Shown in pieces: positions 32,319 to 63,227 of a DNA stretch of 64,000 nucleotides. The notes under the pieces are model-generated. The model had not been told where the DNA came from, searched no databases, and was given only the letters and a program-made list of their open reading frames with translations. This DNA is from Candidatus Nomurabacteria bacterium (GTDB taxonomy: Bacteria; Patescibacteriota; Minisyncoccia; Phycocordibacterales; UBA918): positions 854,587 through 918,586 of the forward strand of contig CP060229.1 in the NCBI GenBank assembly GCA_023898585.1, written 5' to 3'. The position numbers and the translations under genes are program-made. The stretch's first letter is position 1. Each line of letters opens with the position of its first letter.

Positions 32319-32320
32319 TT

Positions 32321-46836: not shown

Positions 46837-47406
46837 CTATTCATTATTTTGTGGGACAGCTAAAGCTTTATCTAAATATTTATGCATTTCGGCTGGTGTC
46901 AATTCTCCGTGTTGGTGATGTACAATTTCTCCGTTACGGTCATAAAAGAGAGTTTCGGGCATAGTATACCCCCCTATCGATTTGTAGTATTTGTCTGAAG
47001 CGTCTAAAACCAGCAATATTTTCTCTTCCGCATTTATGAATTTAAGAAAACTTTGAGCCGTAGTTCCTGGTTCTGCCCGGTTTATACCGATTACCTTAAC
47101 ACCCTCGTTTTTATATTTTTCGTACAATTCCGTTAACTCTTTCATCTCACTTACACATGCCGGACACCAGCTAGCCCATGAATTGACAATCAAAACTTCA
47201 CCCACAAAATCAGACAAAATGACTAGATTACCGTTCAAATCTGTGTAAGTAGCAAGCGGGTCGTTCTCTAATGATTGCTGAGCTGGACTTACTTCTTCGG
47301 TCGCCTCATTGTTCTTTTTTACAACTGTCCACGTGTAAAAAACAACACTGATCGTTACCAGCGCTATAGTCGTGATCGTTAGAACGTTGTCTTTGCTTAA
47401 CTGCAC
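46837..47406 (-). CDS. TlpA/ResA-like thiol-disulfide oxidoreductase (membrane-anchored thioredoxin fold)
   Basis: 189 aa; N-terminal TM; WCPAC active site (VNSWASWCPACVSEMKEL). Confidence 0.7.
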   Translation of the reverse strand: MQLSKDNVLTITTIALVTISVVFYTWTVVKKNNEATEEVSPAQQSLENDPLATYTDLNGNLVILSDFVGEVLIVNSWASWCPACVSEMKELTELYEKYKNEGVKVIGINRAEPGTTAQSFLKFINAEEKILLVLDASDKYYKSIGGYTMPETLFYDRNGEIVHHQHGELTPAEMHKYLDKALAVPQNNE

Positions 47407-47415
47407 AAAAAAATT

Positions 47416-47922
47416 TTAACCTTTTATGAACAACTCAAATTCGTCCGGTGATTCACCTTCGCTGGCAGGAATTAAATTCAGTTCAATATTTCTTCCCATG
47501 AAAAGGGCAGAAAATGTAGCACTGTCTGATGCGCTTGCTTCCACTTTAAAGCGTTGCGCTGTTACAACCTGTACGCAAGTGTCCGAGTTGTTGATTACGT
47601 CGAAATTGATAACCACTCTCTCCGGGTAGGATTCTTGAATCGTTGCTTTTGCTTCTAAGAGGTCACAAGGAGTTGGAAAATTTATCTCACCAACCAAAGT
47701 ATGGACACCATCAATAAAGTAGTGCTTGGCATCAACGCGAGTAATATCAGGGTATTTGTTTGAATCTTCGATTTTTTCAATCGGGGTCACATCGACTGGT
47801 GCTTCTTGCTGTATTTCTCCCTTTTTCAAGTGTGCATATATAAACATCCCAACTACCAAAAGAGCAAATAGTGTAACCACTAAAATAATTGATTTTTGAC
47901 TCATAAGTATTGTATTAGCCAT
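47416..47922 (-). CDS. Hypothetical membrane-anchored protein
   Basis: 168 aa; N-terminal TM (IILVVTLFALLVVGMFIYAHL) and a beta-rich ectodomain. Confidence 0.4.
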   Translation of the reverse strand: MANTILMSQKSIILVVTLFALLVVGMFIYAHLKKGEIQQEAPVDVTPIEKIEDSNKYPDITRVDAKHYFIDGVHTLVGEINFPTPCDLLEAKATIQESYPERVVINFDVINNSDTCVQVVTAQRFKVEASASDSATFSALFMGRNIELNLIPASEGESPDEFELFIKG

Positions 47923-47939: not shown

Positions 47940-49607
47940 TTATTGTACAATATTTACGATATCTTTGCCTACATAAATTGATATTTGAGCTTTGGATTCG
48001 GACAGTCCGCTATACGATGACAACAAGGCGCCTTCCAAGATATTACTTAGAGTCAGAGCTTGATCTTCGAGGCCTGGTTCGAAAACGATTATGGTATTGT
48101 TCTCCTTAGTTTCCAAATCGTTAGACATTGACACTATTTCATAACCCATATTTTCAAGATAGATACGTAGTGAGGCGGCAAGGCCATTGATGCCACTGCG
48201 GTTTACGATTTTTATTTGCGGAAGTTCAGGATTTGTAGCTACTTTTTCTTTTTCGCCCTGTACGAGTTTTTGGTAAGCTGTATCTTCCGAAGTTATCTTT
48301 ACCCCCTCACCTACCCCTTCAAAAGTGACTTCATATGGTCGCTCCGGTGTGGATGCAGATTTTACGTACCAAACAACAGCAGAGATAAATAAAATTGCCC
48401 CAAGCAAAGCTAGGAAGAAAAATTTGTAATTTGAGACGAAGCCGGCCACAGTTTTTAAACGATCTGTGTTTGTGGTTGTGTGTTGTAGTCGACCCCTCAA
48501 ATCTAACATGCCGGCTTCAATCGGGGCCACCACCGACAGTCTGGCCTTTTGATTATTCGAAATCATTTTACCGCTAAACTGCTGACTGGAATTAAGACCA
48601 GCCAGGTTTAGCATTTTTCTTATGTAGAGTTTAACAGCCCAGGTAAATAAATAAGCAAAGCCGAGCAGAACCAATATTACCGCGCCCATTATTTTCCAAG
48701 GTATTACCCAAAATGCAGTTTCACTGTTAACAAACTGTCTTTCCTTATCTCCGTAACCGATGGTGGCTATGGCTGTATATCTACCAATGTCTGCCATAGA
48801 CCACTTTCCAGTCCAAGTGAAAGTAAACATCCTAATGCTTTCCGGAAGCACGTTACCAAACATGGTTGAGCGGTTGATAGGGATAACTCCGCGCTCTTGA
48901 CCCCACATGTTAAGTATTTTTATATCCCCTTGTGGCTGAATATGGACATTGCCTTTGTTTTCAAAACGCAGTTCAAAAGTTGCTTCCGGTTTTTCTAAGA
49001 TGGCTGATGTGGTGCGAAATGATCTTATATTGCCAGATTCGACTACGTCGCCGGTAACACGCAAAAAGACCAGAGAGGTTACAATCTGTGACGTTTTTAC
49101 CTCAGGAACTCCGGTTTCATTTGCTGGAGGTTTTGTTCCAATCAATACAGCCGCGAAGTGACCTCCAGGCGAGGCGTCCTCAGGGACTTTGATAGTAAAA
49201 TCAAGTTTATGAGTCTGTTCAGGCGGAATAATAATTTCACTTTCCGGAATACTTATCCATTCAGCGATTGTTTGACCTTTGCTTTCTTCTTCTATTATAG
49301 GGACGAATTTACCCTGCCCATCTTCACCTTGTGGAGCAAAGTTGACAGCATTGGCAAAAATAGTAATTGGGTATGAGTTTGAGTTCACTACACGAATTGA
49401 GCTACTCCATTCCTGTCCCGGGTTGGCTGACATTTCGAATAAGGTCGGAGAAACTGTGAGCGATAAAGCACTTTGAGCAAACGTTATGGCCGGCAAAAGC
49501 GACATTAAGAAAATACCTGAAAACAAATATAGGTGCGCTTTATTGGGTTTTGTTTTTGAGATCGATATCATGTTCCTTGGGATTTTGTGTATGACCTTCA
49601 CGGACAT
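47940..49607 (-). CDS. DUF916-like cell-surface protein with internal TM pair and C-terminal LytR_C-like domain
   Basis: 555 aa; signal peptide; N-domain SLTVSPTLFEMSANPGQEWSSSIRVVNSNSYPITIFANAVNF (DUF916-like pattern SP....E....PGQ....I.V.N.S); two TM helices; C-terminal PQIKIVNRSGINGLAASLRIYLENMGYEIV... resembles LytR_C. Confidence 0.45.
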   Translation of the reverse strand: MSVKVIHKIPRNMISISKTKPNKAHLYLFSGIFLMSLLPAITFAQSALSLTVSPTLFEMSANPGQEWSSSIRVVNSNSYPITIFANAVNFAPQGEDGQGKFVPIIEEESKGQTIAEWISIPESEIIIPPEQTHKLDFTIKVPEDASPGGHFAAVLIGTKPPANETGVPEVKTSQIVTSLVFLRVTGDVVESGNIRSFRTTSAILEKPEATFELRFENKGNVHIQPQGDIKILNMWGQERGVIPINRSTMFGNVLPESIRMFTFTWTGKWSMADIGRYTAIATIGYGDKERQFVNSETAFWVIPWKIMGAVILVLLGFAYLFTWAVKLYIRKMLNLAGLNSSQQFSGKMISNNQKARLSVVAPIEAGMLDLRGRLQHTTTNTDRLKTVAGFVSNYKFFFLALLGAILFISAVVWYVKSASTPERPYEVTFEGVGEGVKITSEDTAYQKLVQGEKEKVATNPELPQIKIVNRSGINGLAASLRIYLENMGYEIVSMSNDLETKENNTIIVFEPGLEDQALTLSNILEGALLSSYSGLSESKAQISIYVGKDIVNIVQ

Positions 49608-50553
49608 ACATTAAGACTTCTTCACCGTCCTCATCATTGTAATTGTCTCGCGAAAATGTTCTTCTAAGCAATAACGTAACCAGTATTACCACGATTAAGA
49701 TACCGCCAAATATCGTTACCAGCAAATGTATCGGCATCATGTAAAAAAAAGTTGTGTCGTGCAACGACGCCCCCATGTTCTTTCCGTATTGTAATGATAC
49801 ATTGGCTTTGAATCGACCCAACTTGTCATCTATCGGCACTTCGCTGGTTAGAGTAACTGTTTCGCCCGGTTCGATCACTTTAGCTTCGCTGTTTACTTGA
49901 ACTGAGCCGATTTCTGAGCCTCTAGAATCATAAAAAATAACTTCACCACTCGGAGCAGACGGTATGTCCCCTAAGTTCTCTACCACTATACTAATTTTCT
50001 TTTTGTCATCGTCTGTGATGAATCTATCCACCAAAAACCCAGCTATCTTCATGCTGTCTGCTCGTTGATCAGCAACTGTTATTTTTACAACAACACCATC
50101 AGCTTCGCCTTTCATAGCAATATCTTCCGCGATGTCTCGATTTTTTGCCGGTACAAAACCGATAAACGCGTGGTACTCCCCAGGTTTAGCGAGTGGGTTG
50201 ATTCTGAAGGTCACCGGTATCTCCTTTTTGTCTCCCGGCAGAATTTCGATTCTGCCTCTTGTTACTTCTATCCAGCTGGTAATTGTATTGGTTCTGTCTG
50301 TCATGACCGGAGTAACAAATTCCTTAATTTCACCTTTTGTGTCCACGGAAATTTCGTTAACCGTGGCGTAGACAACATATTTTGTGAATTTGCTTTCGTT
50401 AGTCAACAAAACCGTCTCTTCGATGATGTCTCGCGGTCCGGCTACTTTATCCATCAAAAAAGGTCGGACTGAGTACTCGGACGCCGAGGAAAATGCCGGC
50501 GGGATAAAAATGGTCAGCAAGAATAAAAGTTTTATAGCAAAATGTCTTTTCAC
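49540..50553 (-). CDS. DUF916-like cell-surface protein with C-terminal TM anchor
   Basis: 337 aa; signal peptide; YSVRPFLMDKVAGPRDIIEETVLLTNESKFTKYVVYATVNEISVDTKGEIKEF (DUF916-like); a C-terminal TM (LLVTIFGGILIVVILVTLLL) and an acidic cytoplasmic tail, the same topology as Gram-positive CscA-type proteins. Confidence 0.45.
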   Translation of the reverse strand: MKRHFAIKLLFLLTIFIPPAFSSASEYSVRPFLMDKVAGPRDIIEETVLLTNESKFTKYVVYATVNEISVDTKGEIKEFVTPVMTDRTNTITSWIEVTRGRIEILPGDKKEIPVTFRINPLAKPGEYHAFIGFVPAKNRDIAEDIAMKGEADGVVVKITVADQRADSMKIAGFLVDRFITDDDKKKISIVVENLGDIPSAPSGEVIFYDSRGSEIGSVQVNSEAKVIEPGETVTLTSEVPIDDKLGRFKANVSLQYGKNMGASLHDTTFFYMMPIHLLVTIFGGILIVVILVTLLLRRTFSRDNYNDEDGEEVLMYVREGHTQNPKEHDIDLKNKTQ

Positions 50554-50569
50554 AGAAGTAATATACCAT

Positions 50570-53500
50570 TTAAAATACCGGTACCGCTACATAGGTTATT
50601 GTTGTAGTGTAGTCACCAGCCGGCTGAAGCTCTCTGGCTTTGATTCTGTATATGATGTTTTCTACGTCGACTGAGGCTATGGAACTGTACATTATTTCAT
50701 CCAATGAAGTACTGAGAGAAGCGTACGAATCAAGTGGAGCAAACCTGGCCGAGCCACCTTCGAGTGTAGCGTCGGTGGTGTGGTAGCCGGAACAACTAAT
50801 CGCACCTCCTGTGCATCCAGTAGACCAACCGACCGGTGATGCGTTTGTGCCGGTTATCGGTATGATTTGGTTTCCATAGGAATCAAGTAGTTGCTGATCC
50901 ACATACTTAAAGACCTGATAACCTTCGATCGCGTTAGTATCGACAGTAATTTGCTGTGCCACTTCAACATCGGTATCAAGAGGCAGTGACCCGAAATCGA
51001 CAGAAGTTGCCGTCGTGGTAGCGTCTGTCGTTATTCCTGCTATCGAAGTGTTGGCGTCGACACCATCGATGGTAAAAGTAAGAGAGGCACTTTCTCCAGC
51101 CAGGCTGGGGTTTGAAGTACTCGCGAAGACCACTTCGTTATTAGCAAGATCATACAGTCTGAAGTGATAAACCCTGCCGTAATTACGTTCCACATTGGTG
51201 TACTTAAGAGCAAACTCGTATTCCGTCTTATCTCCTCCATTATGTGTGAAGCCGTTGTAGTAATAAGAACTTTCATTATGAGTGCCACATCCGGCCCCGA
51301 CACTTGCCACGCAACTATCAGAATCGGAAAGTACCGCCGTTGTAATTACTTCATTGTCAACTCCTCCACCATCTTCATAACACCAAACTGAACTGGCCAC
51401 ACACGAAGATGTGGCGACAACATCTTGAGCATCACTGAAATCAGCCTGTTCAGCAAACTGTATTTTGAATCGAGCATTCACTTGGGTCAAGTTCTTTATC
51501 TCGTCCAAAGTGACTCTCAACTTAACCGAGTCGTCTTTTAAAACATTGGTTGGAGCTATGTTCTCCGGTGCTAGATCAACGGTTGGTGTTTCGTTTGTCT
51601 CATCGCCGTACCAACGCCAGGAAGTGATGACCGGTGTGTAACCTTCTGTCCTTATTTCAGGGTAATAAAGATAACCATCGAGTGGAGTGTCGTCAGACTT
51701 AATCATGCGAAAACAGTAAGTGGTTCTTTGTGCGGCTCCGTTTTGCTCAATTAACCAATCGTATTCAACATCTTCACCATCATAAACCGGATACTGATTG
51801 GCTAACGACGGGTTGTTTTCGGTGTAGCGCCCGGCACGATCTGATATTGAAATTAGCAAATCGCCTCCGGTTGGCGGATTGCCCGAAAGTGAAACACCGT
51901 CTGTGATTCCTGGCGCATCGTATCCTCTCCAAATCGCACCACTTCCAACTGAACCGACATCAGTCCATGAGACAACTGCCGAGCAAGTTGTGCTTCTAAC
52001 AGCGTATTGCAATTTTGTCGTCACCAGACCAGCGGGTAAAGTAGCATTACTTACTTTCAAACTCATTCTTATGCGGATTCTGTCACCATCAGCCAGTGGT
52101 GCATCAAGCGCCCCAATGGAAGTATTCTCTCCAAGATTGTCAATTCCCGGTGGCCATGGATCAGTCGGTTTCAAAGCGTCGTTATCCACATAAAAACGAT
52201 AGTAATTTTGTCGCACTGCGAGGTCTGCGGCTGGCCATTGAACAACCTCGGTTCGGTAAGCTAATACTTGACCGGTGTCACTACGCCACAATTCATAGGT
52301 GCTGGTCGACATTATAGTAGCTCCGGCTATCATTCTTGGATAATTATTTCCCGTTCCGGTAACGGACGTAGTCAAAAATATGGATGCGTTATTGGTTGCA
52401 TTGAGAGGCGTCGGGATGTTAACCGAGATACTAAGTGGCTCTGAACCGCCGGTTGTGTTTCCATTACTTCTTTGTACGAGCATTTCTCCGGTACTGGTCT
52501 GGGTGTTTTCGATAATCCAGGCTACAGAAACGTGATTGGAGGTAAGTAGAGCTTGCGGTTCCAAAAGAAATGACACAGCGCCAATACTCGATAGCCATAC
52601 TTCATGACCGAAGTCGGCCAAGCCAAGACTACTGGCGTATCGTTTTTGCGAATGAATGAAAGTGCGAGCTAGGCTATTAACGGCGGTTATGTTTTCAGTC
52701 TCCGTCACTCCGACCGCTGAATAAGAATGCTCAACTCTCTGCACTTTCCAATTTAGTCCCACGAATTCAACTACAGCGTAACTCACGTAACCATCATTAG
52801 CTCCGGTGTCATTACGAGTAAAGACCGGTTCATTTGTTGAAGATGACCAAGAAGCGGTCGACTGATGCCCGTAGCCTTCAGATCGGTTACCGCCGGTGTG
52901 TTGTTGTCCTGTAATAAAGACAACAATGTCGCTGTCATCAACTACGGTTGAAACTGCGGTACCTGTCCCTATAGTATCCGCCACACCATAATTTATAAGA
53001 CTTTGACTTCTAACGAAAATTTCGTTATCTCCACCCGGTGGACCAATATATTCAACAATCTCCCAAGCTACATAAGTATTATTTATAGAGTCACTGTCTC
53101 TCGCAATCGTGAAACTCGTTTCTATATTCCAAGGGTTAGAAATATAAGCGGCATAGTCGTCGGTGTTTTGGTTCCCTCCATTAGAGTCTTTACCAGCACC
53201 TGTGTAATGTGAATTCGTGATCCTAACAAAGGCACTCGTTGAGGCACTCGGTGCGACATAATCTGTACCGGCTGTTAATGTGACACCAGAGCCACTCACT
53301 ATATTGACTCCCCGCTGAATTTTAAAATCTCTTCTTGCTTCTATCGACACTTCAGCGTACTGGTCGTACTGCAAGAGAGGATCACCATTTTGAGTTGCTC
53401 TAAAACAAAAAGTAGTTTCGTAAGGCGTGTCGTTTGTAGTTGTAATGGCATACTCAAGATCAACGTACTGAGTCTGCGTTAAGGTGGTGGTAGCTGAAAA

Positions 53501-56500
53501 TGATTCAGTATCTCGAACGCCACCGTTTGAACCTAAGAAGGTTTTTCCACCCGGGTTGCTTACTCCACCGTTTGCCACAGCTATGTCAGTCGTGGTTTCA
53601 CCGTTGGTGAGATTGGGAGAATCGTACATATCCCAGGAAATTCCTCCACCGTCTGCATCGCTCCAAACCGCAATCGCTTCGCAAGTGGTAACTTTAATAC
53701 CATATTCGAGGCCGTATTTGTGAGGAATTGAGCTGGTTGAGCCCTCGTTCGAAAGACCCAGCCTCAATCGAATTGAGCTGTTTTTACCAAAATCTAGCAA
53801 AGGGGTGTCTTCCGACCCTCCGGTAGCTGAAGTGGCCCCAGTCTCGTTTCCGTCGTCGTTTCGCCAGTGATAATGTATTTGCGTAACAATTCCACCGGAG
53901 AGCGTGGTTGAGCTAGTTATGTCGAGAGCGGTTGATGGAGCGACTGAACCTCCGTCTGTGACCAAAACATCGGACGATCCTGAATTGATGATAATGTTAA
54001 GAGTTTCACCATTGTTAGCTGTGTTAGTAACATCAAGGACTGGATATACGCACATCGCCTGGGTAGTTGTGATGCCAACCGAGCCGGTAAAAGTGGCAGT
54101 TCCGTCAGGACCACTAAAAGAGGAGAAAGCACTTCCGAATTGCGAGTCAGATATGGAAAAAGTTTCGCTGGCACAATCGTATGGAGAGCTGGTATCAAGA
54201 TCGTAGTAAAGTCTGATATTTTCCACTCCACTTGTGCCGTCAACAGTGCCGTTCTCGGTAATAGTTATACTTGTTACATTTCGTGATGAATTGTTTTCTT
54301 TTATAACAAAAGCTCCACCAACATGAAAATCGGCTGTCGGTATATCGACCGTGGCGTACTGCGTGCTAGTGGCACTTACTCGTACATCAGCAGCGATCGT
54401 AGCCTTGGGGTAATTGGTATATGCTGGCAACTCTTCGCCATTGTTTGTTAGTCGAAAGCAATAGGTATTACCTTCGGTAGCTGAGGTGGAAGCGATTATT
54501 GAAAACTCCACTTCTGTCCAGTTAGTAGGTAAAAATGTCAGTGGACCAAGTGTGGAAGAAGTATCACGTAGTCCACCATTGGGGGTCAACAAAACAGTAT
54601 TCTCATTTGTCACACCACCGATACCAACACTAATGTCCGTCGAGTTCGACCCGTCTGTTAAAAATGTCGAATCATACATGTTCCAATCGTCATCAGTGGC
54701 TCCGACATCTGTCCAGCCGGTCGCAACATCACAAGTTGCGGTGTTAAGCGCGTACTCAAGTCTTAATGTGGTTGGAAAAGATGAAGTTGAACCTTCATTG
54801 GAAATACCGAGTCGCAATCTCCTTGGTGTGTCTTGCTGGAGCGCAGTCAATGAAGTGTCTTCTATCCCACCAGTCCTAGATGTGGCACCGGTTTCGTTAC
54901 CATTATCATTTCGCCAATGGAAGTGAGTTTGAGTAAGATCTGAATCGAGTATATTTGTTGTTCCGGACAAAACCTGCACCGTATCAGGAACGGCAGTCAC
55001 CGACCCTGATACAAGAACATCTGTTGCCGGATTGGAAATTTCAATTTCCATATTACTTCCGTCAACCGCCGATTTGAGAACGTCCAACACAACATAAACG
55101 CACATTGACTGTGTTGGCGAAATACTGACGGAGCCAGTGAAAGCTGAAGTTCCGTCTGCACCAGAAAAACCGTTGGCATCAGTACTACCAAATTGTGACT
55201 CAGAGCCGGAGTATGATTCGCTCGCGCAGTCGTAGGGAGAACTGGTGTCAAGGTCGTACTTCAACTTTATATTATTCAAGCCACTTGAAGCATCTACCGT
55301 ACCGTTTTCTGTAATCTGAATATTGGTGACGTTTCGTGCTTCAGTAAACTCTCGAATTACGAATTGCCCACCCACATACTGATCGGTGGTACTTGCTCTC
55401 ATTGTCGTTGCTTGTGTGCCGGAAGCAGACACAACGGTTTTAGGGGAGAGGTCAGCAACTGTATCGCCGAACACATCATCAACGTTAGCTTCAAACCATG
55501 ACAAAAATAATCTTTGAATTGACGAGTAATTAAATGAAACCCCGTACATATCACCGGAAACAGTATTGACAGGACCTTGTTCAGCGCCCCAACTGGTCAT
55601 GGCGGAGGTCGACGTTGCCCAATACACGTTAGCTGTAGATGCACTGTTAATGGTGGTACGGGCAGAATAAGCAACGTAGACGGTCTCTGTATTTTCATCA
55701 ATTGTAAGGGAAACGGATGTTAAACCACGGGTATCGTTGGTAATGATGTCGGGTAGATTTGACCAAGAACCACCTGAATATTTCGCTACTCTAATATCGT
55801 GGTCAGCGGTAGTGAAGGTGTTAGCATCAGCGATATAAGCAAGGAAAACATCTCCGGAAACTGGGCTCCTTACCGCCGACATTTGGAAATCGTAGGTTGA
55901 GCTTTCAACGGCATTCGCATCAATAGTAAGCCAGTTTGTGTCCCAACTTGTGCCATTCCATACCTTGGAACGCATGTCGTTGGCACTAATATCACGATTG
56001 ATGAGAAGTATGTTTCCACTGTCTAGAGGTAGGAGCATAGTAGCATCTTCATCAGCGTCCATGAATGTGCCATCGCCAACTTCAACCCAGTTCGTTGCTG
56101 TGCCACAGGTAGCAGAACAAGAAACAACAAAGCGATCGCCATTGTCAGACACTGATATATAAAGGATCCCGTTTGTACCTTTTGTTAGAGAATGATTAGC
56201 CGTAGCAGCACTTAGTGACATTGGACTTTGGCTCAGTACAGCACTTACAGGACTTGAGCCGAGCAACAAAGTATCACTAGACACATCAAGACGATTGTAC
56301 CAAATATCATCGTCACCCGAATCCATCGTGGCGATGTGTATGTAGGATCCAGTATCACCCGGTGTCCACTGATCGTACCAAACAACAATTGCTTGACAGT
56401 CGGTCTGTGAATCCACAAGTACCTGTGTCCCCCATGTCGCCCCACCGTCTGTAGTTTTCTTGTAGACACAAGTGCCGTTTGTTCCAGTTCCTCCGACACC

Positions 56501-56707
56501 ATCTCGATAAAATTTATATCCAACTTGATCCGATATAAACACTGAGGACGGTTGAACTTGGTTGTGAGAAGGGCCGTTTGTGCTCGGAGTGTCATCAATA
56601 ACTACTTCTGCTGCTAAAGCATAAGGAAATAGTGGCCAACTCAAAAATTTGTCTGCGCCTGAAAAAACAAAAGTTGAAATAAGTATAAAAGTAATTAACT
56701 TTTGCAT
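50570..56707 (-). CDS. Giant secreted surface protein (~2045 aa): BNR/sialidase-like N-domain, four repeated ~230-aa modules, conserved C-terminal domain
   Basis: Probable start is the Met of MQKLITFILISTFVFSG (signal peptide; GGTGG-like RBS upstream). BNR/Asp-box TTDGGATWGTQ. Repeated modules signalled by FHWRNDNGNETGATS / HYHWRNDDGNETGATS / YYRFYVDNDALKPTD / SWRWYGDETNETPTV, each followed by RLRLG(I/L)SNEG... and ...(T/Y)(Y/F)CFR... Duplicated beta-sandwich segments (YDLDTSSPYDCASE...). C-terminus ...YRIKARELQPAGDYTTTITYVAVPVF. Confidence 0.6.
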   Translation of the reverse strand: MQKLITFILISTFVFSGADKFLSWPLFPYALAAEVVIDDTPSTNGPSHNQVQPSSVFISDQVGYKFYRDGVGGTGTNGTCVYKKTTDGGATWGTQVLVDSQTDCQAIVVWYDQWTPGDTGSYIHIATMDSGDDDIWYNRLDVSSDTLLLGSSPVSAVLSQSPMSLSAATANHSLTKGTNGILYISVSDNGDRFVVSCSATCGTATNWVEVGDGTFMDADEDATMLLPLDSGNILLINRDISANDMRSKVWNGTSWDTNWLTIDANAVESSTYDFQMSAVRSPVSGDVFLAYIADANTFTTADHDIRVAKYSGGSWSNLPDIITNDTRGLTSVSLTIDENTETVYVAYSARTTINSASTANVYWATSTSAMTSWGAEQGPVNTVSGDMYGVSFNYSSIQRLFLSWFEANVDDVFGDTVADLSPKTVVSASGTQATTMRASTTDQYVGGQFVIREFTEARNVTNIQITENGTVDASSGLNNIKLKYDLDTSSPYDCASESYSGSESQFGSTDANGFSGADGTSAFTGSVSISPTQSMCVYVVLDVLKSAVDGSNMEIEISNPATDVLVSGSVTAVPDTVQVLSGTTNILDSDLTQTHFHWRNDNGNETGATSRTGGIEDTSLTALQQDTPRRLRLGISNEGSTSSFPTTLRLEYALNTATCDVATGWTDVGATDDDWNMYDSTFLTDGSNSTDISVGIGGVTNENTVLLTPNGGLRDTSSTLGPLTFLPTNWTEVEFSIIASTSATEGNTYCFRLTNNGEELPAYTNYPKATIAADVRVSATSTQYATVDIPTADFHVGGAFVIKENNSSRNVTSITITENGTVDGTSGVENIRLYYDLDTSSPYDCASETFSISDSQFGSAFSSFSGPDGTATFTGSVGITTTQAMCVYPVLDVTNTANNGETLNIIINSGSSDVLVTDGGSVAPSTALDITSSTTLSGGIVTQIHYHWRNDDGNETGATSATGGSEDTPLLDFGKNSSIRLRLGLSNEGSTSSIPHKYGLEYGIKVTTCEAIAVWSDADGGGISWDMYDSPNLTNGETTTDIAVANGGVSNPGGKTFLGSNGGVRDTESFSATTTLTQTQYVDLEYAITTTNDTPYETTFCFRATQNGDPLLQYDQYAEVSIEARRDFKIQRGVNIVSGSGVTLTAGTDYVAPSASTSAFVRITNSHYTGAGKDSNGGNQNTDDYAAYISNPWNIETSFTIARDSDSINNTYVAWEIVEYIGPPGGDNEIFVRSQSLINYGVADTIGTGTAVSTVVDDSDIVVFITGQQHTGGNRSEGYGHQSTASWSSSTNEPVFTRNDTGANDGYVSYAVVEFVGLNWKVQRVEHSYSAVGVTETENITAVNSLARTFIHSQKRYASSLGLADFGHEVWLSSIGAVSFLLEPQALLTSNHVSVAWIIENTQTSTGEMLVQRSNGNTTGGSEPLSISVNIPTPLNATNNASIFLTTSVTGTGNNYPRMIAGATIMSTSTYELWRSDTGQVLAYRTEVVQWPAADLAVRQNYYRFYVDNDALKPTDPWPPGIDNLGENTSIGALDAPLADGDRIRIRMSLKVSNATLPAGLVTTKLQYAVRSTTCSAVVSWTDVGSVGSGAIWRGYDAPGITDGVSLSGNPPTGGDLLISISDRAGRYTENNPSLANQYPVYDGEDVEYDWLIEQNGAAQRTTYCFRMIKSDDTPLDGYLYYPEIRTEGYTPVITSWRWYGDETNETPTVDLAPENIAPTNVLKDDSVKLRVTLDEIKNLTQVNARFKIQFAEQADFSDAQDVVATSSCVASSVWCYEDGGGVDNEVITTAVLSDSDSCVASVGAGCGTHNESSYYYNGFTHNGGDKTEYEFALKYTNVERNYGRVYHFRLYDLANNEVVFASTSNPSLAGESASLTFTIDGVDANTSIAGITTDATTTATSVDFGSLPLDTDVEVAQQITVDTNAIEGYQVFKYVDQQLLDSYGNQIIPITGTNASPVGWSTGCTGGAISCSGYHTTDATLEGGSARFAPLDSYASLSTSLDEIMYSSIASVDVENIIYRIKARELQPAGDYTTTITYVAVPVF

Positions 56708-56837
56708 ACGCAAAAAACCACCTTTTTTGTGTGCCCAAAAAAACATGATATGTGGTTATATTTTACTCTATAAACTACAAAAATGTGGTTCTGGTAGTGG
56801 AAAATGTTACTTCATGACACCAATCGTTATTCCTTTA

Positions 56838-58685
56838 CTAGTCGCCCTGGTTGATTGCTGTACTAGAAGAACCAGATTCGTTTGTTGGCTGAATAATCAA
56901 GTCGTAATCAGTCAGTTCCAAGAACTGTTGATCTTCAGTGGTTTTCAGCGATGTACTAGATAATTGCATATCATCCGGTTCATCGGCGGTAGAACTGCCG
57001 TTAGCTGAAGCCTGCTTGAGATTTAGAGTTTCAGCTTCATCAATCTCTCCGACACCCGAGGTACTAGAGCCAGTAACATTCTTTGTTCCATCGATATTGA
57101 ACTCACCTTTACTTGAAGATTTGTTTTGAATAAGAGCTCTTGTCTCACCTGTCCCATCAGCATCTGGAATCTCAACCGGATTATCAGCCGGTCGAGAAGC
57201 GATGGGCGCGGAGATTCCCGTGTTAGGATCAAATCCTTGCGTTACAACGTCACCATTGTCGTACATAGTGTCGTATACAAGCACAAAGCGTGGATTTGCT
57301 ATAACACCCCCTTCGTAGCCATTAATAGTTAAAGTCTCACCACTCTTGAGTGAATAAACCTTGGCTTCTTGCTCTTCCAAGCCTAGCACGCTCCAGAGAA
57401 CATAGCCGTCATCAATCGCCGGAGCAACATCTTGAGTCAGATTATCTGTCAATTGGTCAGTGTATGTGCCATCAAACATCATTATCTCCCAATCATTACC
57501 GTCCCAAGCTTGCCACACCACACCTTCTTTTGAGACTTTTGGCTCCATGTTGTTGGTGCGTGAAAATGTCAGCTGGTCTTCTTTTTCTTCTTTTATGTCG
57601 TATAAGATAATTTGGTACCTGCCATCTATCTGTCTTTGCCACACTACTTGCATTGATTCGGCGTTGTAGTGAGGAGAAGTATCTTCGTACTCATTGTCAG
57701 TTAATTGTTTTACTTCACCCATCGACGTACGCAAGAAAATTTCCATATTTGAATTGGCGCCCAAATCAGCGTACACCACAGCGTTCAAATCTATTCCGGT
57801 TTCCGTATTAACACTACAGTGGTAAGTTCCATCACCAATGGCAACACATGACTGACGGTTGAATTGATAATAATTATCTTCAGTAACTAGACTCTGCGCC
57901 TCAACCTGATTAATTTGTTGAGGAGCAAGATCGTCGATAATTCCAGTCAGGTCAGTATCTTGTGTTTCTGTACTATCGGCACCTGTCGAAGAAGCAGAGA
58001 AAGAAACATGGTCATCCAGTGATGAATCAGCACCAACGGTTGTTGTCATCAGGTCTGAAGAACTCGCCGATGAACTATCATTATCACTATACGAATTTGA
58101 GCTAGTACTCGATGATTCTGTTTCACCCGTATCACTATTACTCTCCGAACCAGTTTGAGTAGTTGTTGACACGCTGGTTTGAAGGAGCAACGATTTGTTA
58201 CTACTACTAGCTACTTTACTTGAAGTGGCAAAAGTTTGTTTAGTAGAAGAAGCAGTTATATTGCTAGATTGAATATCAGCTTGGACATTCGTGTTTACAA
58301 CATTGTTATTAATGGAAGTTGACGAATTTTTAGTGTTTTTTAAGAGCGAGTCTTCGATTGTTGTTGCTGGCTCATTATCGATATCGTCATCTAACGTGGA
58401 TGCTTCAATTGATTCATCTGAATCTCTTATTGAATCATTTATGGTAACAGTTTCTGCAGATTTTGATGAGGCTTGTAAAGCAACCGATTCAGCAACTGGT
58501 GAATTTTTTTCAACATCAACAGTAATAGCATCTTCACTCGCAAAGGCTTTATGAATTGGTTGAATCAAAAACGAAATAAAGAGAGTTAAAACCAAAACAA
58601 CCGAAAAGCCACTGTTAAAGGTAACAGCATAAATAAATGCGGCGGACCGCTTATTATTCTGATATAGCTTTGGTTTGTACCTCAT
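56838..58685 (-). CDS. Membrane-anchored Ser/Thr-rich protein with TolB-like beta-propeller domain
   Basis: 615 aa; N-terminal TM; ~200-aa low-complexity Ser/Thr/Asp tract; C-terminal repeated W/D-rich blades (QVVWQRQIDGRYQIILYD...VVWQAWDGNDWEIMMFDG...YVLWSV). Confidence 0.5.
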   Translation of the reverse strand: MRYKPKLYQNNKRSAAFIYAVTFNSGFSVVLVLTLFISFLIQPIHKAFASEDAITVDVEKNSPVAESVALQASSKSAETVTINDSIRDSDESIEASTLDDDIDNEPATTIEDSLLKNTKNSSTSINNNVVNTNVQADIQSSNITASSTKQTFATSSKVASSSNKSLLLQTSVSTTTQTGSESNSDTGETESSSTSSNSYSDNDSSSASSSDLMTTTVGADSSLDDHVSFSASSTGADSTETQDTDLTGIIDDLAPQQINQVEAQSLVTEDNYYQFNRQSCVAIGDGTYHCSVNTETGIDLNAVVYADLGANSNMEIFLRTSMGEVKQLTDNEYEDTSPHYNAESMQVVWQRQIDGRYQIILYDIKEEKEDQLTFSRTNNMEPKVSKEGVVWQAWDGNDWEIMMFDGTYTDQLTDNLTQDVAPAIDDGYVLWSVLGLEEQEAKVYSLKSGETLTINGYEGGVIANPRFVLVYDTMYDNGDVVTQGFDPNTGISAPIASRPADNPVEIPDADGTGETRALIQNKSSSKGEFNIDGTKNVTGSSTSGVGEIDEAETLNLKQASANGSSTADEPDDMQLSSTSLKTTEDQQFLELTDYDLIIQPTNESGSSSTAINQGD

Positions 58686-58801
58686 TTGGGCTACATAATT
58701 TTGATTTTGCGTGGGAAGTTAGAATATCCCCACATCATAATAATACCAACAGTGCTGTGCCACTGTTAGTATTATTATCAACAGATATTTTGTCTTTTAA
58801 A

Positions 58802-59548
58802 TCATTTGAAGAATAGGTCTGCCAAAATAATTGAAAAGTCTTTAAACGTCATTTTTCCGTCTCCATTAAAGTCGTAAATTTTATCCTTTGTTCCCCATGC
58901 TGACATAAACGCACTAACATCTTTCAGTGTAACTTCGCCATCGCCGTCAACGTCTGTTAAAATACTAACTTTGACATCTAAACCGATACTGGTTGGGTCT
59001 GTATTCTGGTCATATATGTATAAATTTACATTTGAACTCAAAGCTTCAGCAACTTTTACCTTGGTGCCGGCCCCATCACCAGCCAACAAAACCACATCGG
59101 ATGTTTTTACACTACTTTGCCCAGTTTGTTTAGCCTGAAGTTTTATTGTGGCGATCTTATGTTCACCTTTAAAACCTTTCTTGTATGTCCCACCTTGCAA
59201 TATTACGTGATCCGGCATTATTACTGGCTCTTTTGTCCAAATTGTTAAAACAGACTGTCCCTTATCAACCCCCAGGACTTTCACAGCAGACTCATTGAAG
59301 CGTAGTGTAATATCTATGGCATTAACCGGAACATGTGCGTACGCAAAAACATCTAAAGAAAAATTTTCACCTGCTTTGATAGCTGTCTTGGATGCTTCCA
59401 GTCTCACATATGAAACATCAGTCGAAGTAACTACCGCCGCGCCAAGCAAAGCAATTAATGTTAGTGAAGCGGAGAACATGTAGCGGACAGTTCCCTTTCG
59501 TTTTAGAGGGTTAAAGAATACTTTAACGAAACGAAGGAAAAAATCCAT
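58802..59548 (-). CDS. Cohesin-dockerin protein
   Basis: 248 aa; signal anchor; cohesin-like domain (ENFSLDVFAYAHVPVNAIDITLRFNESAVKVLGV); C-terminal type-I dockerin duplicate Ca-binding segments DVDGDGEVTLKDVSAFMSAWG and DFNGDGKMTFKDFSIILADLF. Confidence 0.65.
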   Translation of the reverse strand: MDFFLRFVKVFFNPLKRKGTVRYMFSASLTLIALLGAAVVTSTDVSYVRLEASKTAIKAGENFSLDVFAYAHVPVNAIDITLRFNESAVKVLGVDKGQSVLTIWTKEPVIMPDHVILQGGTYKKGFKGEHKIATIKLQAKQTGQSSVKTSDVVLLAGDGAGTKVKVAEALSSNVNLYIYDQNTDPTSIGLDVKVSILTDVDGDGEVTLKDVSAFMSAWGTKDKIYDFNGDGKMTFKDFSIILADLFFK

Positions 59549-59556
59549 AATTAGGG

Positions 59557-60243
59557 CTAGATGGAAATTAAATCAGAGCGAATGCTTGAAGTTTTTGTAG
59601 CAGTAACAGTGAGTGCCTCTTGGACGGAGCGAACTTCGACTAATATATCCGTGATCTCAGATGAATCTACCGCACTTCCTGCCAGCAGTGTGGAAATGAT
59701 TTGATCCTGAAGTCTTACCAAAGTAGCAAAAAGATCACTTTGCTTTTGTTCCTCATCGGCTAAACTTTGCCACAAAGAAAGTTTATACTCTTCGGAAACG
59801 CTTTCACCAAGGACAAGTTCGAGCTGATTCACATAAGACTCGAACACTTCTATTTCTCTCGCAAGTTTTGTCACCATGACCGACTTAGTGTCGGAACGAA
59901 ATTTACCACACCTGCCAAAAAGCCTTTCCAGCTCTGTAAGTTCAGCGTTATTGAGTCTGTTATTAAGCTGATTAAGCAAACTATCAAACTGCGATCTTTC
60001 AGCCACTGAACAATCGATAATGATCGATTCTGTGATTTGATCAGCACCATTTCTAGCAGTAGTCTCAGCTATGGCAACTAGCAGGGCTTGCTGATTGGCG
60101 ATAAGGAGTCTAGTGCCGAGCTCGATATCCTTAAAATGGTTGTTGATGATTACGGTAACCAATGAATACATTACGCCTATTCCAGCCACAACCACGATTA
60201 CGTTCTTTATATTTAACCAGTTAAATTTACTTGTTTTGTTCAT
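59557..60243 (-). CDS. Hypothetical membrane-anchored helical protein
   Basis: 228 aa; N-terminal TM (VIVVVAGIGVMYSLVTVII) and a predicted alpha-helical ectodomain. Confidence 0.4.
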   Translation of the reverse strand: MNKTSKFNWLNIKNVIVVVAGIGVMYSLVTVIINNHFKDIELGTRLLIANQQALLVAIAETTARNGADQITESIIIDCSVAERSQFDSLLNQLNNRLNNAELTELERLFGRCGKFRSDTKSVMVTKLAREIEVFESYVNQLELVLGESVSEEYKLSLWQSLADEEQKQSDLFATLVRLQDQIISTLLAGSAVDSSEITDILVEVRSVQEALTVTATKTSSIRSDLISI

Positions 60244-60249
60244 AAAAGT

Positions 60250-62025
60250 TTATGCGTTATTTTGCTTTTCAGTTAATTCTGTAACATCCCTCATTTCCTT
60301 TTCGACCTTTTCTTGTGATGATCTCAAGGCCTTATCGAGAACATCCACCATGTTTATTTCCGCTCTAGTTAACTTCTTTGTTTTGCGAGAATCTTGCAAG
60401 ATTAGTTCTTGATCCTGTAAAATCTTCTGCAACACTGAAAATTCGCGGTGCAAAATCTCAAGCGCCTCGACGGATTCTATTCGTACTTTTTTCCTGAATC
60501 TACGTACATACAATAGCATATACCATGCTCCGAGAATTAAGACAAAAGTCAATACTATGAGTGGCACGATCACCGATAAAACACTGACTATAAAGGAACC
60601 GATTCTTAAGTATCCAGGTTGTTGGACTGCGATTCTGATAGATTCAGACACATCACTTTGGGCTCCAAATTTATCTGTCGCTATAGCTGATAGTTCATAC
60701 ACACCGTTTGAAAATGTCCCTTCTGGTATGAATATAAATTCACCAACTTCGTTGCTCATTAAAACATGCTCGTTCGGCTCGGCACCTATCTTGTTAATGT
60801 AAATTTGCACAGTCGATTCAGGTCTGGTTTTACCCTTTATTACCGGTATAACCTCTTCATTAATTTCAGACGGATACTCGGTAAAGATTGGTCGGTCGAA
60901 GGCTTCTATAGTAAACGAATGAGTACCGATTATACTATTTCCAGCTTGGTCAAAGGCTTCTATTATTACCGAGTGGTAACCTGGCTCTAAACCAAAGAGC
61001 AAAATTGTACTTGAACCCGATTTATCAATGTACTCATAGGCTTCGTCTGAATCGAGCTTCACCATGAAACGATTCACTTTTGTAGTTTCATCTTCGACGT
61101 CAACCTTGAGTACTTGTTCAGGACTCGACAAATCGACTTCTTCCAAGTGCGAAATTTTTATTGCGGTTGGGCTTTTTGTGTCAACAGCTAACCGATAATG
61201 AGTTACTTTACCCCAGCCGTCTTGGTTTCTGAATTGCACATGAAAATAGGATTCTCCTTCTGGCAGATCGGTAAGTTTTATATTGTTAATCACGTTGTCG
61301 TATACTTTGGTCGGAACAGAAGTGGGAACTTCGTTTAACAAAGTCCGAACGCCGGTTACGTCTCTTGGGGTACTCCACTTCAGTTCAGCGACATTGTTTT
61401 TGTACCAGGCAGATGTGTCGGGATGAGTGACGGACGTGACACTCGGCGCTTGTGGTGTATTAGCCGGAGCGACATACTCAATCACTTCCGGTTCCGGAGC
61501 GGTGGAGGCTGCTTGAATAGTGAAAGAACCACCATTCATGGTAGTTAGAATATTTGTGCCTCGTCCGTCATTTGCCAGAACCGAACCGTTTTTAAAATTA
61601 ACTCTGGCTGTTCCTGCTCCTTTGGTGCGAAAAGTGACGTTCATGATAGTTCCGGTTTGTAGAGAAAAGCCCGAGGGTAGACCACCACTAAAACTTATCG
61701 TACCCGCACTGTTAGAGAAAGTCGGCTCCGTCACCCAGAGATTGAATATTGACCCGCTTCGATTAACCGATACCACAGACAATTCATTGGGGTTAAAAGC
61801 AAGCGTCCCTTCGGCGGCATTGACCGATTTCCCTTCAGTATTAACGATTACTTTCGTTGTAAATGTACTGTTGGCCGTATATACACCGGTGGTAGGTGAT
61901 AAAGATAGTGAAGCGGCTTCTGCAACTGAAAAGAATGGTACAAGATAAAGAACCACTAACAACATTAAGAAAAGGACTTGGTGACAAAAACGTGAATTAA
62001 TTGGGTTCGTCATAATCAGATCCAT
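60250..62025 (-). CDS. Type-I membrane protein with N-terminal cohesin domain
   Basis: 591 aa; signal peptide; cohesin-like domain (SLSLSPTTGVYTANSTFTTKVIVNTEGKSVNAAEGTLAFNPNELSVVSV...GTISFSGGLPSGF); Ig/Fn-like middle; TM near the C-terminus (FIVSVLSVIVPLIVLTFVLILGAWYMLLYV) and a charged cytoplasmic tail. Confidence 0.5.
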   Translation of the reverse strand: MDLIMTNPINSRFCHQVLFLMLLVVLYLVPFFSVAEAASLSLSPTTGVYTANSTFTTKVIVNTEGKSVNAAEGTLAFNPNELSVVSVNRSGSIFNLWVTEPTFSNSAGTISFSGGLPSGFSLQTGTIMNVTFRTKGAGTARVNFKNGSVLANDGRGTNILTTMNGGSFTIQAASTAPEPEVIEYVAPANTPQAPSVTSVTHPDTSAWYKNNVAELKWSTPRDVTGVRTLLNEVPTSVPTKVYDNVINNIKLTDLPEGESYFHVQFRNQDGWGKVTHYRLAVDTKSPTAIKISHLEEVDLSSPEQVLKVDVEDETTKVNRFMVKLDSDEAYEYIDKSGSSTILLFGLEPGYHSVIIEAFDQAGNSIIGTHSFTIEAFDRPIFTEYPSEINEEVIPVIKGKTRPESTVQIYINKIGAEPNEHVLMSNEVGEFIFIPEGTFSNGVYELSAIATDKFGAQSDVSESIRIAVQQPGYLRIGSFIVSVLSVIVPLIVLTFVLILGAWYMLLYVRRFRKKVRIESVEALEILHREFSVLQKILQDQELILQDSRKTKKLTRAEINMVDVLDKALRSSQEKVEKEMRDVTELTEKQNNA

Positions 62026-63070
62026 TAGTGTTTTCTAAAATATCGGCTCTTTCCACACTATTTTTACGCCCACGATTTCTTTTCAGCCAGTAAAATACAA
62101 CCAGTGCTGTTAGCACTACGACTATCAAAGTTGCAAAACTAATAGCTATCGTAAGCACTTGAGCGCGTGAAATAGTCCTCATCGACTCATCCGGTATAAG
62201 GGTGGCTATATATTCATTACCCGCCTTATCAACCGCTTTAACACGAATAATACTATTGAGACTTTGGTCTTTTAACACATAAGGACTACGTTCAATAACC
62301 CAGGGGGCATCCGCTCTTCCCCACTGAAACGAACCTAGTTGAGCAAGCGGTTCTTCCATCACCTCGTAGTGGTCTATTCCTGTCTGTTTGTCTGTAGTAT
62401 TGAAAACTATGAAATGATCGCCTGAAAAAGCTTTGTTATCCTTTTGGACAGAAATACTAAATTCTTCGGGTGCTATCTTATCTGCCGTTATTTGGTTCTT
62501 CCAATCATTAACTTGCGATTGACCGGCTTGTGGTTTTAGCTCAACCGTAGCTCCGTAAGTCGAGAGATCTGCCTTTGTTCCCAATCCATCATTTAAATAG
62601 GCTGTAGTTTCGTCAGAAAAAGATAGTTTTGCTAAAGCTTCCTCGGAGGAGCCTCCCCCAACTGAAAAACCGGGTGACCTGAACACAATTTCAGCAACTA
62701 CATTAGTTAACATTGGATCACCAACTATTCGTCCGCAATAACCGTTGGGTACTCCTCCGGCAAAAGTCACTGTCCTGTCTTCTTTATTTATTGTTGGGGT
62801 TTCCACCCACACACTGAATATTGATGAACCGAGTGAGACATCAACCGGAGCTATGTTGTCAGTATATGTTAAAACACCATCGATAGCATTAACGCACTCA
62901 TTATTTGCCTCATCGGTGTCTAGCCTGACAGCAACTTTGATTGAGTCACCCCGATACAATGTGCTACTGGCCGGATCGATATACAAAGACGCACCGAGAG
63001 TTACGTTCGGTAACAAGACAAACGTCACTAACATACATACAAAAAGTCGCCGAACACGAATTCTATTCAT
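61997..63070 (-). CDS. Type-I membrane protein with N-terminal cohesin domain (paralog)
   Basis: Probable start is the Met of MNRIRVRRLFVCMLVTFVLLPNVTLGA (the ORF track extends to 63121). Cohesin-like SLYIDPASSTLYRGDSIKVAVRLDTDE...LTYTDNIAPVDVSLGSSIFSVWVETPT...TVTFAGGVPNGY; C-terminal TM (VLTIAISFATLIVVVLTALVVFYWL) and a short tail. Confidence 0.5.
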   Translation of the reverse strand: MNRIRVRRLFVCMLVTFVLLPNVTLGASLYIDPASSTLYRGDSIKVAVRLDTDEANNECVNAIDGVLTYTDNIAPVDVSLGSSIFSVWVETPTINKEDRTVTFAGGVPNGYCGRIVGDPMLTNVVAEIVFRSPGFSVGGGSSEEALAKLSFSDETTAYLNDGLGTKADLSTYGATVELKPQAGQSQVNDWKNQITADKIAPEEFSISVQKDNKAFSGDHFIVFNTTDKQTGIDHYEVMEEPLAQLGSFQWGRADAPWVIERSPYVLKDQSLNSIIRVKAVDKAGNEYIATLIPDESMRTISRAQVLTIAISFATLIVVVLTALVVFYWLKRNRGRKNSVERADILENTNGSDYDEPN

Positions 63071-63227
63071 GACAAAATTATAACAAGCACTTGTAAAAAA
63101 ATAAGTGGCTGTACACAACACTGAGAAGATAAGAGTCGCATAGACAAATTAGCAAAACAAAAAACCCTTCTCGTGGTGGGAGATAGGGCTTTTTGTTTTT
63201 AACTCCAAGCTTAGAGTCAGTATTCGA

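Follow-up and report, generated by a model that had tools for sequence, protein, structure and literature searches.

A C-terminal domain (CTD) carried by two secreted proteins, A and B, of a Paceibacteria-lineage CPR bacterium appears to belong to a Pam-type pilus, as the C-terminal domain of its pilins, a reading to which we assign a probability of roughly 70%. In this putative pilus, protein B would serve as the shaft pilin, protein A as the tip adhesin, and WxLIP-like proteins as the chaperones. The shared domain is genuine, and its best placement is as a divergent branch of the Pam pilus family, which was described only recently; it does not represent a novel cell-wall sorting signal. To that family it adds a Paceibacteria branch lying below the NCBIfam cut-off, a giant putative tip adhesin that carries the CTD, and the WxLIP homology of the putative assembly proteins.

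Two secreted proteins share a C-terminal domain

Within the window, the 64-kb stretch of DNA that was analyzed as a whole, translation yielded 2058 aa for protein A (50570..56746) and 256 visible aa for protein B (63228..>64000), the N-terminus of which lies beyond the window. Both genes are encoded on the minus strand, a correction to the earlier annotation. A BLASTP comparison of A against B aligned residues 1889-2058 of A with residues 69-256 of B (32% identity, E = 1e-12) and returned no significant similarity outside the C-termini, in agreement with the original prediction of a C-terminal domain common to two otherwise different secreted proteins. The predicted motifs TFxxxGV, TTAT..FG.L, LTV(N/D)TNA..G(F/Y), PV(A/G)W and DYTxT(L/I)TYVAxPVF were found in both CTDs, and in both genes the stop codon directly follows TYVA(V/T)PVF. 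A six-frame HMM search identified exactly two copies of the domain in the window, those of A and B. The predicted size of ~150 aa agrees with the NCBIfam core of 148 positions, which covers 50573..51013 in A, whereas the full region of similarity extends over 172-190 aa (Table 1).

Table 1 Coordinates of the CTD-bearing proteins and of neighbouring genes in the window
Feature	Position	Strand	Basis or remarks
WxLIP-like 555-aa protein, proposed second chaperone or anchor	47940..49607	minus	PF06030, PF13399
WxLIP-like 337-aa protein, proposed membrane-anchored pilin chaperone (PamC/PamD analogue)	49540..50553	minus	signal peptide, two Ig-like domains, C-terminal TM helix ~aa 272-296
Stop codon, protein A	50570-50572	minus	
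CTD of protein A, Pam-type pilin domain, proposed donor-strand acceptor	50573..51085	minus	aa 1888-2058; ends GDYTTTITYVAVPVF; NF058581, BLASTP vs B
Passenger part of protein A, proposed adhesin/host-binding portion	51086..56746	minus	translation, internal repeats
Five co-directional, tightly spaced genes between pilin and giant gene	56838..63121	minus	Pfam and NCBIfam matches; candidate anchor/scaffold components
Stop codon, protein B	63228-63230	minus	
CTD of protein B	63231..63797	minus	visible aa 68-256; ends DDYTATLTYVATPVF
Linker strand TRVAIVDSVTVTASVDT of protein B, proposed donated strand	63798..63848	minus	alternating hydrophobics; conserved; missing from A
End of N-terminal domain, protein B	63849..64000	minus	gene runs past window edge

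The shared domain is related to Pam pilins

In an NCBIfam scan, the CTD of protein A matched NF058581 (CPR_Pam_pilin_C, "Pam pilus system pilin subunit") with E = 2.7e-8 over positions 2-148 of 148, and this was the sole specific NCBIfam match. The same model was matched by 42/64 members of the B-type family (best 1.1e-9), and P0113 aligned over profile positions 2-148 with 1.2e-5. Protein A scored 34 bits and protein B 15-22 bits, both below the curated NCBI cut-off of 55 bits; because all scores fall short of this value, we regard the proteins as a divergent branch, which NF058581 would leave unnamed. Pfam searches detected no family in A, in B or, even at E ≤ 10, in the isolated CTDs, hence neither SLH nor the T9SS CTD, which the original prediction had named as parallels, and a PDB sequence search with the CTD profile produced no match. 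On the strength of the profile similarity, we conclude that the CTD is homologous to the CTDs of Pam pilins.

Structure prediction supports a donor-strand-pilin-like fold. An AlphaFold model of the B CTD, computed from a 64-sequence alignment, reached a mean pLDDT of 92.8. Foldseek matches of this model to the PDB were weak (best E = 1e-3), with TasA fibre, CfaB, PapE, PapA and FimA/FimG among the top matches; many of the leading matches are subunits of donor-strand-exchange filaments.

The Pam family was defined in a preprint by Troman et al. (2026; bioRxiv 10.64898/2026.03.03.709456), in which cryo-EM of filaments of the Saccharimonadia parasite Ca. Mycosynbacter amalyticus led to the pilins PamA and PamB. 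The operon encodes PapD/FimC-like chaperones with C-terminal TM helices (PamC and PamD; WP_260763277.1, WP_260763284.1), a tip subunit consisting only of a CTD (PamT) and a membrane anchor (PamR). The documented role of the Pam CTD is to accept the donor strand of the next pilin; in PamA and PamB the donated strand is the linker, and linker and C-terminal strand are highly conserved, as they are in the family studied here. The system was reported mainly in Saccharimonadia and Microgenomatia, with Paceibacteria unmentioned (bioRxiv 10.64898/2026.03.03.709456). Structures of the PamA and PamB CTDs are available as PDB 25PZ and 25QA.

Distribution and position of the domain

A word-indexed search with the CTD of B retrieved 135 proteins, all hypothetical, the few named ones being assigned to Paceibacterota or Kaiserbacteria. 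When 1.84 billion representatives were searched with a profile, 2088 matched at E ≤ 1e-3; most are proteins of 370-395 aa, but a few larger ones (570-1022 aa) likewise carry the CTD unit at the C-terminus. Among the best 150 of the 2088 representatives, almost all align through to the last residue, and a motif of the T/I/M-Y-V/I-A/C-T-P-x-F type terminates 118/120 of the closest homologues. These results bear out the expectation that the domain always occupies the extreme C-terminus and that more proteins ending in it exist. The outcomes that would have spoken against the original prediction, a lack of further proteins or an internal domain, were thus not observed.

The CTD of A defines a smaller subfamily, whose 33 members come from Kaiserbacteria or Paceibacterota and are for the most part fragments of genes. 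Nearly all named matches and GTDB loci were assigned to Paceibacteria, Kaiserbacteria, Nomurabacteria, Parcubacteria or generic Patescibacteria, with a non-CPR label on 1/80 GTDB loci (L064). The CTD family thus has the restriction to CPR/Patescibacteria that is a trait of the Pam system.

Protein B is probably a shaft pilin

We aligned protein B to an HMM built from 93 full-length B-type homologues, of which it covers positions 134-374 of 374. As the alignment starts at position 134, about 130 N-terminal residues, including the signal peptide, should lie beyond the window. Orthologous ORFs span 383-418 codons. Across the 93 homologues, the linker between the two domains is conserved at about 2.2-2.7 bits per column, compared with 1.7-2.1 in the central part of the N-terminal domain. 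Although several segments of the CTD exceed the linker in score, linker and C-terminal strand both rank among the best-conserved parts of the family. The linker consensus in the pilin HMM reads "etrVaiiddVtvtAsVdt". Protein B is described here as a probable shaft pilin of ~385 aa, made up of a signal peptide, an N-terminal domain, the linker TRVAIVDSVTVTASVDT and the CTD. The view of B as a second large protein, part of the original prediction, was rejected, its orthologues being ~375-395 aa long.

Protein A is probably a giant tip adhesin

Protein A begins with a hydrophobic signal-like segment and contains a tandem duplicate of a ~335-aa module (aa 453-786 and 804-1137), a sub-module of which is repeated again at aa 1540-1617 and 1710-1796. 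Pfam and PDB sequence searches with the passenger part (1887 residues) detected no relatives. Of the full-length pilin HMM, A aligns with positions 191-374 alone (E = 2e-31), a stretch that begins directly after the linker segment; the pilin N-terminal domain and the linker strand are absent from A. Having the CTD but neither of these elements, A would be able to accept a strand but would have none to give, and its place in the proposed filament would thus be the distal tip. Wherever the contig extends far enough, giant orthologues of 1181 to 2075 aa, among them those of 1997-2075 aa, end in an A-type CTD. By analogy with known tip subunits, we consider this giant, repeat-rich protein a probable tip adhesin and thereby a candidate determinant of host recognition.

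Neighbouring genes encode WxLIP homologues

The genes from B through that of the 555-aa protein are co-directional and separated by gaps of at most about 116 nt or overlapping, in the order pilin B, 374 aa, 591 aa, 228 aa, 248 aa, 615 aa, giant A, 337 aa and 555 aa. Among the products of the five intervening genes, the 374-aa and 591-aa proteins have a cohesin-like N-terminus and a C-terminal transmembrane helix, the 248-aa protein combines cohesin with dockerin/EF-hand, and the 615-aa protein contains a Ser/Thr-rich region and a beta-propeller repeat, with the 228-aa protein encoded between the 591-aa and 248-aa proteins.

The cluster was compared across 80 GTDB loci, which come from MAGs assigned to Paceibacteria, Kaiserbacteria, Nomurabacteria and "Parcubacteria" (82 loci in the gene counts); L002 was left out of the synteny comparison on account of its fragmented assembly. 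The five intervening genes occur in the same order in 52-72/82 related loci, and a JGI contig has the identical cluster order. The 337-aa gene is syntenic in L001, L077 and L079, the latter two showing the order giant, chaperone-like, chaperone-like, pilin, pilin, chaperone-like.

The original prediction of DUF916-type neighbours was confirmed. The 555-aa protein matches PF06030 (WxLIP_PGBD, formerly DUF916) at 6.8e-7 with 29.8 bits, above the gathering cut-off of 27.3, and PF13399 (LytR_C) at 4.1e-9. Its predicted architecture comprises a signal peptide, WxLIP_PGBD followed by a second Ig-like domain, TM helices at ~aa 306 and ~aa 396, and a C-terminal LytR_C domain. PF06030 was matched by 19/23 members of the WxLIP-like family, and a profile of alignment A3, which includes the 337-aa protein, matched the solved structure of EfmWxLIP1 (9i1y/9i25) across both domains (E ~ 1e-6). 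A tblastn search with the 555-aa protein retrieved proteins from Streptomyces, Clavibacter and Deinococcus that are annotated as DUF916 and align over ~85-90% of its ectodomain; a PDB sequence search with this protein alone gave no match. Taken together, the profile and alignment data identify the 337-aa and 555-aa proteins as WxLIP homologues.

Proposed assembly and comparison with pilus systems

In chaperone-usher systems, the subunits bind the chaperone or the donor strand through a conserved C-terminal strand and its carboxylate, a role that the strict C-terminal position and near-invariant end motif of the CTD would fit. We propose that the CTD is an incomplete Ig-like beta-sandwich that would be completed by a beta-strand from another protein. 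By analogy with PamA and PamB as seen by cryo-EM, the linker strand of one B subunit would fill the CTD of the next subunit tipward, and A would accept a strand at the distal end, thereby capping the filament as a two-part adhesin like FimH or PapG. The 337-aa and 555-aa membrane proteins may act as chaperones, holding the CTDs open by strand complementation before handing them over. CPR bacteria have no outer membrane, and an usher would thus not be needed; Pfam and NCBIfam searches of the cluster proteins detected no usher family.

We compared this arrangement with the Pam system through NF058581 and the published descriptions. The likeness to PamA, PamB, PamE and PamT includes a significant HMM similarity that spans the entire CTD profile. 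Both systems have pilins with a conserved linker and two domains, the N-terminal one being putative here (~38 kDa for the B type, like PamB), a CTD with a chaperone-usher-pilin-like fold (predicted here), a proposed CTD-only tip subunit, and neighbouring two-Ig-domain proteins with a C-terminal TM helix. They differ in that the present cluster represents a divergent Paceibacteria/Kaiserbacteria branch scoring under the curated cut-off, and in that its proposed tip subunit is 2058 aa long with a large passenger, whereas PamT is a single domain. Furthermore, one chaperone-like protein is fused here to LytR_C, cohesin/dockerin genes lie inside the cluster, no RbmA-like terminator or anchor resembling PamR was recognized in the cluster, and no ATP synthase was found among the other window ORFs scanned.

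There are also differences from the chaperone-usher pili (Fim, Pap, Csu, CFA/I). Besides the missing usher and outer membrane, we found no sequence similarity, the chaperone-like proteins are membrane-anchored here, and the proposed donor strand is an inter-domain linker, whereas theirs is an N-terminal extension. Their two-domain tip adhesins FimH and PapG are the parallel to the giant protein A.

CPR/Patescibacteria are a large, mostly uncultured group of host-attached bacteria whose way of making contact is largely unknown, and the locus would extend the Pam pilus to Paceibacteria-type lineages.

Relationship to WxL domains

The original prediction interpreted the CTD as a cell-wall sorting or anchoring module, possibly a divergent WxL analogue. 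WxL clusters encode a small and a large secreted protein with a common, strictly C-terminal WxL domain, plus a WxLIP (PMC9772566, PMC10599100). WxLIP consists of DUF916, DUF3324 and a transmembrane helix, and AlphaFold2 models predict that the WxL sandwich has a gap into which a strand of WxLIP fits (Hassan & Williamson). The present cluster conforms to this layout, its C-terminal domain being shared by a small and a large secreted protein next to a DUF916/WxLIP gene. It thus resembles the WxL/WxLIP (Csc) clusters of Bacillota (Hassan & Williamson 2022, 2023) in the homologous partner protein, in the small-plus-large arrangement, in the predicted completion of the shared domain by a WxLIP strand, and in the C-terminal motif (Y-x-x-T-L-T-aromatic). 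It is plausible that the two kinds of cluster work alike.

The CTD itself could be a very divergent WxL domain, a non-covalent peptidoglycan anchor that is stabilized by its WxLIP neighbours and acts in a surface complex without any filament. We consider this unlikely. No match to PF13731 was obtained for the 64 CTD family members or the two isolated domains even at E ≤ 10, and comparison with a bona fide Paenibacillus WxL alignment, a shallow one of 8-9 sequences to which a plasmid collection contributed too few further WxL or actinobacterial sequences, gave hhalign P = 0.11 and 0.16 with ~11 residues aligned in the tool's run. An hmmsearch of the CTD against WxL proteins gave p ~ 0.03-0.06. 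Similarly, hhalign and hmmsearch comparisons of the CPR CTD with the neighbours of actinobacterial and Deinococcus DUF916 genes were not significant, WxL proteins were not matched by NF058581, and a PDB sequence search with the WxL profile returned nothing. The CTDs lack the two conserved Trp-x-Leu motifs that WxL domains have on adjacent strands; at the equivalent sites they show NGF-V-V or EGY-Q-V, and T-Y-V, with no Trp. A Paenibacillus member of PF13731 was also seen to carry Y for W. On these comparisons, we do not count the CTD as a WxL domain.

WxL has been described as a peptidoglycan anchor, not as a filament subunit. Homologues of the CTD were observed as filaments by cryo-EM, and peptidoglycan binding by WxL is itself debated because the AlphaFold2 models show WxLIP completing its sandwich. 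Neither A nor B has an LPXTG or transmembrane tail, both ending in TPVF-COOH, and no LPXTG protein was recognized among the ORFs read. Of the WxL analogy, the C-terminal position, the DUF916/WxLIP neighbours and the cluster layout therefore stand, and the domain similarity does not; a Pam pilin CTD, accepting a strand and not binding peptidoglycan, is the better assignment for the supposed sorting module.

The parallels allow a broader proposal, to which we give somewhat less than even odds. Pam pili, the WxL/WxLIP (Csc) clusters of Bacillota and the DUF916 clusters of Actinomycetota and Deinococcota may represent one ancient, usher-less monoderm system, in which a small and a large secreted protein each end in an incomplete Ig-like domain that a membrane-anchored chaperone of WxLIP type completes and then passes on through strand exchange. 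Under this proposal, the primary task of WxL domains would be to accept a donor strand, as pilins do, and not to bind peptidoglycan, and the products of WxL clusters might assemble into short fibres with the large WxL protein as the adhesin at the tip. The Pam preprint (bioRxiv 10.64898/2026.03.03.709456) mentions neither WxL nor DUF916, and the literature searched contained no published link between Pam and WxL/DUF916. The WxLIP/DUF916 homology provides a testable bridge from CPR pili to the poorly understood surface clusters of WxL type in lactobacilli, enterococci and Listeria, for which roles in adhesion and virulence have been implicated.

Comparison with matrix fibres and generic Ig-like domains

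Donor-strand exchange also occurs in filaments such as TLP-1b, an unidentified pond fibril. The cluster might in principle encode a chaperone-independent matrix fibre or sheath akin to TasA, TLP-1, archaeal threads or cannulae, with B self-assembling through its conserved N-terminal segment (SDTLSDSxP...HTIxFT) in place of the linker and the membrane neighbours playing no part in assembly, an interpretation that we hold to be quite improbable. The TLP-1a/b fibrils (PDB 9IKJ/9IKK, CryoSeek) and TasA fibres have no sequence similarity to the CTD, use an N-terminal donor strand (from protomer n+4 in TLP-1), consist of single-domain protomers and have no known chaperone genes. Here, by contrast, the homology is to Pam pilins, which donate their linker, WxLIP-like genes recur in tight linkage with those of the pilins, and no such N-terminal strand accompanies the A-type CTD.

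Finally, common descent or shuffling might have given both proteins an Ig-like domain of a generic kind that plays no part in sorting or assembly. For the CTD this is very improbable, given its strictly C-terminal position and near-invariant end motif across >2000 representatives, its significant match to a family-specific HMM, and the conserved gene cluster in which it is found.

Extent of the probable pilus cluster and its neighboring genes

Related loci contain a third chaperone-like gene of approximately 315 codons (L008:7069-8019, L013:6853-7806, and approximately 20 other loci), which is placed 2–3 kb upstream of the pilin gene, past position 64000 of the window, suggesting that the cluster probably extends beyond the edge of the window. 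The encoded protein has a mature N-terminus reading GFGITPPYV... and, at its C-terminus, a transmembrane helix; it shows weak similarity to the 337-aa WxLIP-like protein, the proposed membrane-anchored pilin chaperone (E 1e-4 to 1e-7). Within the cluster, the three cohesin-like genes are kept in approximately 70 of the 82 related loci; two of the three proteins possess C-terminal transmembrane anchors, one of the three carries a dockerin/EF-hand besides its cohesin-like part, and anchor or scaffold of the pilus are candidate roles. At the other end, the genes for a thioredoxin/redoxin-like protein and a 168-aa membrane protein share synteny with the related locus L001. Because the giant protein contains 20 Cys residues, including two within the C-terminal domain (CTD) that it has in common with the pilin, these two proteins may have a role in disulfide formation.

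Coordinates of features within the window and at related loci
Feature	Coordinates	Strand	Remark
Leucyl-tRNA synthetase, 929 aa	22550..25339	-	
HlyD-like membrane-fusion protein and AcrB-type RND transporter	30771..35584	+	
LuxI-type autoinducer synthase family match, 226 aa	45988..46668	-	PF00765
Membrane-anchored thioredoxin/redoxin-like protein (189 aa) and 168-aa membrane protein	46837..47922	-	directly after the cluster
Three cohesin-like proteins	58802..63121	-	between pilin gene and giant gene
DUF916-like gene cluster	L085 4892..10638		Deinococcus psychrotolerans plasmid
DUF916-like gene cluster	L083 4876..6690		Clavibacter plasmid

Possible relatives of the pilin and of the gene cluster

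The solved structure nearest to the AlphaFold model of the pilin CTD was PDB 9ikk (TLP-1b), an environmental fibril of the donor-strand type that CryoSeek (PMC11494351) described from the water of Tsinghua Lotus Pond. The source organism of TLP-1b, whose template UniProt entry (A0A2M8AA21) carries no functional annotation, may be a relative of bacteria of this type. A homologue from our profile search, P0138 (570 aa), has the pilin unit at its end and an N-terminal match to the NCBIfam TafC family fimbrial protein (4.1e-11), hinting that this pilin unit also occurs fused to other fimbrial modules.

Outside Bacillota, small unannotated secreted proteins flank the DUF916-like genes, with a large one also present in Deinococcus. 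A WxL-like/CTD-like motif (...GDYSSTITLSLFE) terminates the 208-aa Clavibacter protein; within the Streptomyces locus L084, the 646-aa GH43/ricin protein beside the DUF916-like gene has ...GDYAGTLTLTLL as its end. Together, these flanking proteins and terminal motifs suggest that similar clusters are widespread among monoderm and Deinococcus lineages.

Other genes in the window

The AcrB-type RND transporter match scored 574 bits, with the HlyD-like gene alongside; the lineage carrying these genes is thought to lack an outer membrane. The leucyl-tRNA synthetase harbors an unusual insertion, a NUDIX hydrolase domain (PF00293, 3.7e-15; aa 378–478) immediately past the editing domain. Finally, the LuxI-type match (1.2e-6, 28.6 bits, over the gathering score of 24) is unexpected in a CPR genome.
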